Source of the DNA: Nitrososphaeria archaeon
GTDB taxonomy: Archaea > Thermoproteota > Nitrososphaeria > Geothermarchaeales > JDFR-13
Reading direction: 5' to 3'
NCBI GenBank assembly: GCA_027078545.1
Contig: JALWXN010000004.1
Location: 576,001 to 640,000, forward strand
Length of the DNA: 64,000 bases
Part shown: piece by piece, positions 17,097 to 61,319 of the stretch
Numbering within the stretch: the stretch's first letter is position 1
Layout of the letters: each line of letters starts with the position of its first letter
Position numbers and translations under genes: made by a program
Notes under the pieces: generated by a model
Database searches by the model: none
What the model saw: the letters and a program-made list of their open reading frames with translations, nothing else
Told to the model about the DNA's origin: nothing

Positions 17097-17930
17097 GTGG
17101 TGGACAGTAGATGGATAGTAGTTGTCGGGGCAGGATCCGTAGGATCTACAGTGGTGCAGGGACTTGTTAGGAGTGGGTATAGGAGGGTCAAGATCATCGA
17201 CCTAGACATAGTGTCGAGGACGAGTCTTGATAGGTCCCCTGTATATACGTTGTCAGACCTCAACCTCTTCAAGGTGGAGGCTCTGAGGCGGCATGTATAT
17301 AGTGTAGACCCTACCGCCGAGATACGTCTCTACCCATACATGTTGACGGAGAATAACTACGCCAGGGTCTTTAGGGACTCCTCTCTAGTTATAGACACGA
17401 GCAACACGAGGGACACTACCGAGCTGGTTCTCCATGGGGCAGGTAGCCTAGGCATCCCCGTGGTGTCCCTGGTAGGTGGGGAGGGGGGCTATAGGGTCTT
17501 GCTGAACACTGGGCCTAGGCAGGACGTTGAGCAGGTATATAGTGGCTTGGAGGGGCAGCCCGGGATCGCCAAGGTCTTACAGATGGCCTCGGAGGCACTG
17601 GAGAGGGTCGGGAGTGGGCTTGGCAGGAGGGTAAACAGGTATCCAAGACCCGGGGGGAGCTTCCGATACATGGGTATAGAGGACACCTTCTTCTTCACCC
17701 CTGACGAGAGGGTATCGATAGATATTGAGGGACTCACCCGTGAGGTGGCGAGGAGATACATACTGTTGAGGAGGGGCGACGTGGGCCTAGTCTTCGAGGT
17801 GGATAGGGATGTAGTCGCTGGTGTGACCTATGCGGGGGGCCTCATGGTGAAGGGCGGGGATCTAGACATGGCTGAGGACTTGGCTAGGAACCTAGTCGAC
17901 GACATGATATACAAGTACGTGGTTGAGTAG
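17097..17930 (+). CDS. divergent ThiF/MoeB/E1-like adenylyltransferase-fold protein, cysteine-free
   Basis: VVVGAGSVG, IIDLDIVS..SLDR, KVEAL, LVID motifs. Confidence 0.75.
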   Translation: MVDSRWIVVVGAGSVGSTVVQGLVRSGYRRVKIIDLDIVSRTSLDRSPVYTLSDLNLFKVEALRRHVYSVDPTAEIRLYPYMLTENNYARVFRDSSLVIDTSNTRDTTELVLHGAGSLGIPVVSLVGGEGGYRVLLNTGPRQDVEQVYSGLEGQPGIAKVLQMASEALERVGSGLGRRVNRYPRPGGSFRYMGIEDTFFFTPDERVSIDIEGLTREVARRYILLRRGDVGLVFEVDRDVVAGVTYAGGLMVKGGDLDMAEDLARNLVDDMIYKYVVE

Positions 17931-60155: not shown

Positions 60156-61319
60156 TCATCCCTCCACTATTCCGAGGCGGCTCCTCCACCTAAGCAGGTT
60201 CTCTAGGAGGCCTAGGGAGTCTAGGTATCTACATGTTCTACAGACCTCTCCCGAGGTGGGCTCCCCACATATCCTGCAGGATCCTATACGGACCGTTCCT
60301 GGGCCGAGCTTCTCGATCAGCTCCTCAAGACTATTCATGATCTTGTATTTTATACCTGGCCTCCTCTCCTCCAGCTCATTGATATAGTTCCTTACATCGT
60401 TCCTCAGGGCCTCGGGGGCGTATACACATTCTATGAAACTTGGGTATAGCCCCATCAAGACTGAGTATAACGTGGTCTCCATCTCTAGGGATCTGTAGAA
60501 AGGCTTCACCCTGGGTACTAGGAGGGGGTGGTCTGCGCCGCTTGTCCTGGGTAGTAGGTGTAGGATCCTGTCGAGGCTGTTCGTCACTATGTTGAGGAGG
60601 TAGGTCTGAACCATGTCGTCGAGGTTGTGCCCCGTGGCTAGGACGTCTGCACCTATTATCCTAGCCCCCACATTCAGGAGGTATCTACGGAAGACGCCGC
60701 AGTAGGAGCATGGATACTTAGGTAGGCCCCTCTCCCTAGCTATCATGATTATCTCGTCGAGACCGTGTCCAAAGACCTCCTCATAGCTTATCACCCTATA
60801 TTTGACGCCAAGATCCTCGTTAATCCTCATGAAGTCCTCTATAGTCAGGTCTCTATACCCCTTTATCCCCTCGTCGATTACCAGGGCGGTCAACTCTATC
60901 CCGAGGAGATCCCTATACTTGTTCAGTAGGTAGAGGAGGGAGAGGGAGTCCTTACCGCCTGACACGGCCACTGCTACATGTTCACCTGGACGTATAAGTC
61001 TATGCTCCCTGATTGTCTCGAGGACCTTCTCCTCGAAATACTCTATGTAGTGCTCTCTACAGAGGCTGATGCCTAGATAGTTATAGACAGCCTCCTCCCC
61101 ACATACCTCGCACCCGGCCCCTCCAGACACAACGGGTAGTAGCCTGGCCTCATCACCCGGTCTGAGGACATAGTCCCAGGTGACCACCCTCCCATTGACG
61201 ACGGGTATATACTCCACGGTCCTCAGTCCAAGCTCCTTAACAGCCTCGCCCAGGCTCCTCCCTGGAGGGACATCCCTACTTATTCCCCTCCCCACCACCT
61301 CTATCCTAGCAAGCTCCAT
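60156..61319 (-). CDS. ttuA: TtuA/Ncs6 tRNA 2-thiolation enzyme with N-terminal fused ubiquitin-like (ThiS/SAMP) domain
   Basis: residues 1-67 beta-grasp ending PVVSGG; then CxxC Zn finger, SGGKDS PP-loop, CSYC, GHNLDD, EC.Y, C-terminal CxxC..CxxC. Confidence 0.88.
   Translation of the reverse strand: MELARIEVVGRGISRDVPPGRSLGEAVKELGLRTVEYIPVVNGRVVTWDYVLRPGDEARLLPVVSGGAGCEVCGEEAVYNYLGISLCREHYIEYFEEKVLETIREHRLIRPGEHVAVAVSGGKDSLSLLYLLNKYRDLLGIELTALVIDEGIKGYRDLTIEDFMRINEDLGVKYRVISYEEVFGHGLDEIIMIARERGLPKYPCSYCGVFRRYLLNVGARIIGADVLATGHNLDDMVQTYLLNIVTNSLDRILHLLPRTSGADHPLLVPRVKPFYRSLEMETTLYSVLMGLYPSFIECVYAPEALRNDVRNYINELEERRPGIKYKIMNSLEELIEKLGPGTVRIGSCRICGEPTSGEVCRTCRYLDSLGLLENLLRWRSRLGIVEG

Follow-up and report, generated by a model that had tools for sequence, protein, structure and literature searches.

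MoaX of Mycobacterium tuberculosis, in which a ubiquitin-like protein (Ubl) of the ThiS/MoaD type is joined to its own enzyme through Gly-Gly (GG), is active only after cleavage at the GG (PMC4326299). According to passages of PMC8832034, the MoaD-MoaE protein DR2607 of Deinococcus radiodurans is cleaved by DR0402, HvJAMM1 cleaves linear SAMP1 fusions including SAMP1-MoaE, and PfJAMM1 recognizes SAMP2 whatever is attached to its C-terminal Gly. In the complex of the thiolase TtuA with the Ubl TtuB, the unique cluster Fe of TtuA has the free C-terminus of TtuB as a ligand (PMC9821441). Makarova and Koonin (PMC2948915) pointed out that ThiS genes adjoin PP-loop ATPase genes in archaea; their passages on this neighborhood describe it and do not report a Ubl-thiolase fusion. 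No described Ubl-TtuA or Ubl-NcsA fusion was found in the literature searched, the coverage of which was incomplete. Here we analyze a 64,000-nucleotide stretch of DNA from a Nitrososphaeria archaeon (assembly GCA_027078545.1, contig JALWXN010000004.1, positions 576,001 to 640,000; hereafter the window, and the genome G000). It encodes, as do the genomes of a small clade of heat-loving archaea, a Ubl sulfur carrier and a tRNA-thiolating enzyme as one chain connected by an intact GG.

Architecture and origin of the fused gene

The fusion is a single open reading frame (ORF) of 387 amino acids plus stop on the reverse strand (window 60156-61319, P0001), without internal stop. Residues 1-67 (61119-61319, ending PVVSGG) form a ThiS/SAMP2-type β-grasp Ubl, in agreement with a sequence-only reading of this DNA that had recognized a ThiS/MoaD/SAMP-like domain there. 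The Pfam ThiS profile PF02597 matched residues 15-67 with 28.4 bits (cut-off 22.5), and SAMP2 of Pyrococcus furiosus (5lda_B) was a match of residues 1-67 in a PDB search (E 4.8e-6). Since the ThiS match reaches the last profile position, the GG occupies the position of a free carrier's C-terminus. In the alignment the domain shares 42-57% identity with free Ubls, and its AlphaFold2 (AF2) model has the β-β-α-β-β pattern with a predicted local distance difference test score (pLDDT) of 74-91. The junction DNA, TCT GGA GGG GCC GGG TGC (61127-61110), encodes S65-G66-G67-A68-G69-C70 and continues without stop into the thiolase zinc finger, exactly as had been read before; the sequence across the fusion point, from the Ubl tail into the thiolase, is PVVSGGAGCEVCG.

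The remainder of the chain carries the features of a [4Fe-4S] tRNA thiolase, all on the same strand. These are an N-terminal zinc finger of C70, C73, C87 and H90 (61050-61112, from alignment and profile match), the PP-loop S120-G-G-K-D-S125 for ATP binding and tRNA adenylation (60945-60962; PF01171, 41.8 bits, cut-off 27), two of the three cluster ligands in C204-S-Y-C207 (60699-60710), the third ligand C298 (60426-60428), and a C-terminal zinc finger of C348, C351, C360 and C363 (60231-60278; TIGR00269, 82.6 bits, cut-off 62.75). C204, C207 and C298 are invariant in 14 aligned sequences, the first two aligning with the CSFC cluster motif of NcsA from Methanococcus maripaludis (6scy); in the same set of homologues the PP-loop, the cluster cysteines and both zinc fingers are invariant or nearly so. 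The NcsA structure matched residues 70-373 with an E value of 1.2e-57, and TtuA structures matched too. In the AF2 model of the whole fusion both domains were well folded (mean pLDDT 86.9) and residues 64-66 fell below 50, which suggests that the two domains are connected by an exposed linker that is flexible rather than packed.

The enzyme had first been named TtuA/Ncs6, which is right as to family. In the PDB search M. maripaludis NcsA scored 198.8 bits, ahead of TtuA from Pyrococcus horikoshii (167) and Thermus thermophilus (164). The NCBIfam models gave 193.9 bits for NcsA (cut-off 500) and 182.2 bits for TtuA (cut-off 450), both far below the equivalog cut-offs. A separate paralog in the genome (L046) prefers TtuA (207.6 versus 153.9). 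The fused enzyme thus probably leans to NcsA, the U34 thiolase, over TtuA (U54), with 2-thiouridine (s2U) formation as its predicted activity. A third paralog of 323 amino acids (L047:941-1912, forward strand; G000:C4 1043740-1044711) has the degenerate PP-loop FYDGSKPS in place of SGGKDS and keeps the zinc fingers and CxxC; it is conserved in the related genomes G002 and G003 and may be a non-catalytic partner like Ncs2/Ctu2.

Assemblies from NCBI, ENA, JGI and Logan contain the same fusion in five further protein clusters (63-87% identity). All six fused clusters read PV[VI]SGG[AG][GS]C at the junction. The segment PV[VI]SGG is invariant among the fused clusters and the free orthologues, and the next two residues vary (AG, AS, GG). 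Four junction DNAs (GGA GGG GCC GGG, GGG GGA GCA GGA, GGG GGA GGA GGG and GGA GGG GCC TCA) have diverged with synonymous changes in both Gly codons, every one in frame. The genome itself is a MAG-like (metagenome-assembled) assembly of 11 contigs with 92% completeness, as would be of concern if the fusion were an artefact of sequencing or assembly, or a decaying pseudogene. The sharing of the fusion by six clusters from independent assemblies, with junction DNA that has diverged and is still in frame, rules out such an error, the catalytic motifs are intact and invariant, and this explanation was rejected as effectively refuted. Another reading, in which the thiolase is translated by itself from an internal start, was rejected as well: between G67 and C70, the first zinc-finger Cys, the frame contains no ATG, GTG or TTG, and the Ubl therefore accompanies every thiolase chain that is made.

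The origin of the fusion can be seen in sister species of the same genus-level group, which have the nearest unfused thiolases (64-67% identical). In G003 (L010) and G001 a Ubl gene of 67-68 amino acids lies directly upstream of the thiolase in the arrangement VSGG-TAA-T-ATG. In G003 this 67-residue ThiS/SAMP2 gene ends PVVSGG TAA, followed after one base by the thiolase start ATG GAT AGA TGC (DRC...). The fused and unfused loci have common neighbors: each is flanked by a divergent aldo-keto reductase and, at the opposite end, by AA_kinase and MoeA. In the fusion the 13 nucleotides TAA T ATG GAT AGA are replaced by 6, a net deletion of 7. The thiolase-domain tree groups the fused proteins in a single clade (support 93/93), with the unfused proteins as its sister group (91/90). 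Adjacent Ubl and thiolase genes with the same synteny in sister species, together with the single clade of fused proteins, lead to the conclusion that the fusion arose once, by stop loss between two neighboring genes. When 301 genomes of the class were surveyed with a profile, the complete Ubl-thiolase N-terminus was matched in a single frame in G000 and G002 alone, the two genomes that represent the fused clade; in several other genomes a stop codon lies between the Ubl gene and the thiolase. With this profile, fusions of the Vulcanisaeta type described below have scores too low for them to be distinguished. In G003 (L010:2985-3003) the Ubl Gly-Gly codons GGT GGA form a GGTGG Shine-Dalgarno-like motif 6 nucleotides upstream of the thiolase ATG, and in unfused species the codons of the carrier tail may double as a translation-coupling signal for the thiolase.

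Predicted cleavage after Gly67

In the primary product the GG is peptide-bonded to A68, and the free C-terminal Gly-Gly of carriers is absent unless the chain is cut. A Gly held in a peptide bond is not open to E1 adenylation and cannot bear a thiocarboxylate, so cleavage is obligatory if the Ubl is still a carrier. The explanation that we favor, with moderate confidence, is that the fusion is a precursor from which a JAMM releases carrier and enzyme at 1:1. Translation would thus produce a single chain of a SAMP2/TtuB-type carrier and the cognate [4Fe-4S] tRNA 2-thiouridine synthetase of the NcsA/TtuA family, the stop codon and start region between the two adjacent genes having been lost once. 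The JAMM1-type metalloprotease of the genome would then cut the predicted scissile bond G67|A68 post-translationally, giving a thiolase that starts AGCEVC and a Ubl of 67 residues whose Gly-Gly is free. The freed Ubl would be adenylated and thiocarboxylated by a UbaA-like E1, and its thiocarboxylate would hand sulfur to the free iron of the thiolase cluster, as TtuB does for TtuA. The fusion, its origin, the conservation of its tail and the presence of a protease and an E1 are observed; that the chain is cut, by which protease, and along which route sulfur travels is what we infer.

The constancy of PV[VI]SGG beside variable following residues favors cleavage after Gly67, judging from the aligned junctions. 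The rate of evolution of the Ubl favors it as well: the ratio of Ubl to thiolase divergence is 1.16-1.71 in fused pairs versus 1.61 in an unfused pair. This similarity indicates that the Ubl was not relaxed after fusion and evolves no faster than its free orthologue.

The JAMM gene that had been predicted to exist in the genome was found outside the window (L009). Its product matched Prok-JAB with 51 bits and PfJAMM1 (5lda_A) with an E value of 1.7e-22. The catalytic residues E35, H93, H95, S102 and D105 are kept (motif HGHPAPPQPSSLD, with E35 aligned to PfJAMM1), with one residue fewer between the His pair and Ser than in PfJAMM1. The JAMM is present in all five genomes of the genus. A UbaA-like E1, which had been looked for on the same grounds, is encoded outside the window as well (L007, G000:C4:481066-481767, located by the ThiF profile); this is a full protein of 355 amino acids with a ThiF score of 241.7 bits. 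The window contains, at 17097-17930 on the forward strand, a distinct and shorter ThiF-family Rossmann protein of 277 amino acids (78.5 bits, covering profile positions 23-140 only).

Co-folding of the JAMM with Ubl residues 1-76 gave a score of 0.73, versus 0.01 for the best of three controls, and passed a mark that 58 of 80 solved complexes and 2 of 110 mismatched pairs had attained. The model runs agreed in at least 91% of contacts, with a partner pLDDT of at least 85. In the modeled complex residues 61-72, including the VSGG tail, run through the JAMM active site past E35, H93, H95, S102 and D105. Because 5LDA is a solved look-alike, passing the mark shows likeness only; the model may reflect memory of 5LDA, and it is read as likeness to that complex and not as binding of this copy.

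Two other genes of the lineage have a Ubl whose GG is masked. In G000 the MoaD gene lies about 6 kb past the window end (L001:1486-1785, forward strand; G000:C4 646107-646406) and encodes 15 extra residues after the GG; the tail ends at TAG, immediately followed by the moaE ATG. The corresponding tail in G002 has 21 amino acids and a sequence unrelated to that of G000. In both genomes an insert of about 44 nucleotides after the GG contains GGTTTAAAC, a TATA-like element, and the stop after the GG is lost. In G001 and G003 MoaD has no tail and ends GG-TAA-T-ATG(moaE). A non-conserved tail would be hard to tolerate without a trimming activity, unless other free Ubls substitute. The second case is an ORF of 297 amino acids outside the window (L006:877-1770, reverse strand; G000:C4 about 1104379-1105272), in which an N-terminal ThiS-like Ubl ending ...FTYVSGG continues in frame into an Ogg-HhH 8-oxoguanine glycosylase (PF22175, 161.5 bits). 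This Ubl-Ogg fusion through VSGG or ISGG is found in G000, G002 and G001, and in G003 the Ubl frame ends GGI-stop. The occurrence of GG-masked MoaD tails and a Ubl-Ogg fusion in the same lineage favors cleavage of the Ubl-thiolase fusion too. Elsewhere in G000 a MoaD/Urm1-like β-grasp protein of 94 amino acids without GG, ending SPRALFVL (L002:1183-1467, forward strand; G000:C4 449757-450041), is encoded directly upstream of a canonical GGG-ending Ubl and beside an aldehyde ferredoxin oxidoreductase gene; this gene pair is conserved in G002 and G003.

GG-less fusions and the case for a possible permanent enzyme

A word-based search with residues 1-75 recovered only the four closest fused clusters, and more distant fusions required an exhaustive profile search. 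This search and its follow-up found further Ubl-thiolase fusions in Vulcanisaeta, in another Thermoprotei lineage and in an actinobacterium. As to the novelty that the sequence-only reading had left to be checked, the fusion is not unique: independent Ubl-thiolase fusions exist elsewhere and the architecture is already present in public databases under generic names. In Vulcanisaeta sp. JCM 14467, Vulcanisaeta distributa and a Thermoproteaceae MAG the junction reads VVRESIPGRC or VIKHSPRGRC, with no GG, and the P0169 fusion likewise has none. The GG is kept in P0275 (RVLSGGSPKC) and in P0323 and P0232 (PV[MI]SGGAG..RC). The actinobacterial Ubl(GG)-TtuA fusion P0323 adjoins genes for TrmI (tRNA m1A58 methyltransferase), the Mpa/ARC proteasomal ATPase and the Pup ligase. 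Loss of the GG in homologous fusions that work uncleaved had been named as what would speak against processing; it applies in part, to the Vulcanisaeta-type fusions, and not to the present clade, in which the GG is kept throughout. No JAMM was found in the three GG-less genomes with PF14464 or the G000 JAMM as query; PF01398 (JAB) had no match in any genome, G000 included, and is uninformative for want of a positive control. These three genomes have 3-4 free ThiS/MoaD genes each.

Several observations weigh against processing. With just two residues between the GG and the folded zinc finger, access of a protease might be impeded. The JAMM is also found in the unfused sister species and hence is not specific to the fusion. 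Two free MoaD-type Ubls of G000, ending GGG and AGG, could serve in place of the fused one. Inorganic sulfide can serve TtuA/NcsA enzymes, archaeal and bacterial, and tRNA thiolation in M. maripaludis proceeds without Ubls (PMC11323500), so that a vent archaeon may not need the carrier. GG-less Ubl-thiolase fusions are maintained in Vulcanisaeta, and their existence means that uncut β-grasp-thiolase enzymes are viable, as the sequences indicate. The pattern fits retention of the GG where a protease exists, a correspondence that covers two lineages only.

The chief alternative is a permanent two-domain enzyme that is never cut, in which the β-grasp domain is a structural, tRNA-binding or regulatory module and sulfur comes from sulfide or from other free Ubls. 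The domain might, for example, be a built-in imitation of the state in which NcsA and TtuA are conjugated with SAMP2/TtuB; passages of PMC11323500 and PMC2948915 describe both enzymes as natural conjugation targets of their own Ubl. Fusions without the junction GG (P0183, P0271, P0273 (Vulcanisaeta), P0272, P0151 and P0169) must work uncut, and sulfide is a competent donor for TtuA and NcsA (PMC11323500). However, a permanent enzyme would not lead one to expect the strict retention of PV[VI]SGG under synonymous codon turnover while the next two residues vary, a Ubl without rate acceleration after fusion, or a tail that AF2 predicts to be flexible and not packed. Moreover, the GG-less lineages are those in which no JAMM was found, whereas the present genus has one, and the MoaD tails in the same two species argue for active GG processing. 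We regard the permanent enzyme as possible but rather doubtful. Both the JAMM-processed polyprotein and the permanent Ubl-enzyme working on sulfide had been offered by the sequence-only reading; both are sound, and GG retention, the JAMM and the E1 give better support to processing, although the cut is a prediction.

Partial or conditional cleavage, gated for example by sulfide or stress, would let both forms coexist, with the JAMM setting the extent of carrier-dependent thiolation and the uncut enzyme using sulfide. This would join the evidence for the processed and the permanent forms, and it has a parallel in Thermococcus kodakarensis, where sulfur supply determines whether the sulfide-driven or the Ubl-driven route is used (PMC11323500). 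A single protease would also control all three GG-masked Ubls of the genome. Against this, no regulatory element and no genomic link between JAMM and fusion were seen, the two genes being about 210 kb apart, and we consider coexistence improbable.

Processing of the Ubl-thiolase fusion by a JAMM, which we continue to favor, could be part of a broader pattern. At least three Ubl genes of this lineage (Ubl-NcsA, Ubl-Ogg and the tailed MoaD) may have turned into GG-masked precursors, such that one JAMM1 licenses thiolation, tungsten/molybdenum cofactor synthesis and perhaps conjugation. This would amount to a maturation resembling that of ubiquitin precursors in a crenarchaeon without ubiquitin, and the JAMM-less, GG-less Vulcanisaeta proteins would be an end-point at which the carrier role was abandoned. 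We put this forward as a speculative proposal. Read in sequence, the three states, namely separate genes, a GG-fusion with JAMM present and a GG-less fusion with no JAMM found, would represent an evolutionary series for the gain, masking and loss of a Ubl carrier.

Comparison with described carrier-enzyme systems

The systems with the same two protein families and the same catalytic motifs are TtuB-TtuA of T. thermophilus, SAMP2-NcsA of Haloferax volcanii and UblA with TtuA and NcsA of T. kodakarensis. Unlike the present protein, they have the carrier on a polypeptide of its own, its GG free; the adjacent-gene order of such two-gene systems is the ancestral state seen here in the sister species. 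For the complex of PfJAMM1 and SAMP2 (PDB 5LDA) both partners have homologues in this genome, the two PDB matches given above, and the co-fold model places the VSGG tail in the active site. In contrast to 5LDA, the Ubl is here linearly linked to its own enzyme and the JAMM activity is predicted from sequence. The Vulcanisaeta fusions, annotated as 'tRNA lysidine(34) synthetase' or 'TIGR00269 family protein', are similar in having a ThiS-like β-grasp domain directly on the N-terminal zinc finger of a TtuA protein of about 390 amino acids. However, they belong to another thiolase paralog group (about 35% identity), have VVRESIPGRC without GG and no JAMM found, and are presumably never cut.

If the predicted cleavage is correct, the principle by which a JAMM releases a carrier from the enzyme to which it is fused would extend from molybdopterin synthase to tRNA thiolation, and 1:1 synthesis of carrier and enzyme would be guaranteed. 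The fusion also offers a natural system for asking whether archaeal NcsA/TtuA enzymes use a Ubl thiocarboxylate or free sulfide in vivo, and what roles archaeal JAMM1 has beyond removing SAMPs from conjugates.

The sequence-only reading had taken eukaryotic ubiquitin precursors as its model. These, and CsUb of Caldiarchaeum, which is processed by CsRpn11 (PMC6043591), are similar in that a GG-masked Ubl is matured by an MPN+ protease. The Ubl of the present fusion is of the ThiS/SAMP2 type with no E2 or E3, and the likeness is one of logic only. A closer precedent is found in the prokaryotic MoaD-MoaE and MoaX proteins that are cleaved at the GG. As passages of PMC8832034 and PMC4326299 describe for MoaX, DR2607 and SAMP1-MoaE, an N-terminal ThiS/MoaD carrier is joined through GG to its own enzyme. 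In those proteins cleavage at the GG by a JAMM/MPN+ protease is needed for the carrier, whereas in the present fusion it is a prediction. The partner here is a PP-loop [4Fe-4S] tRNA thiolase instead of MoaE, and the fusion is confined to a small clade in one genus-level group. By analogy, the fused gene is likely a member of the known type of JAMM-processed Ubl-enzyme fusion, represented by MoaD-MoaE and MoaX, with a new enzyme partner.

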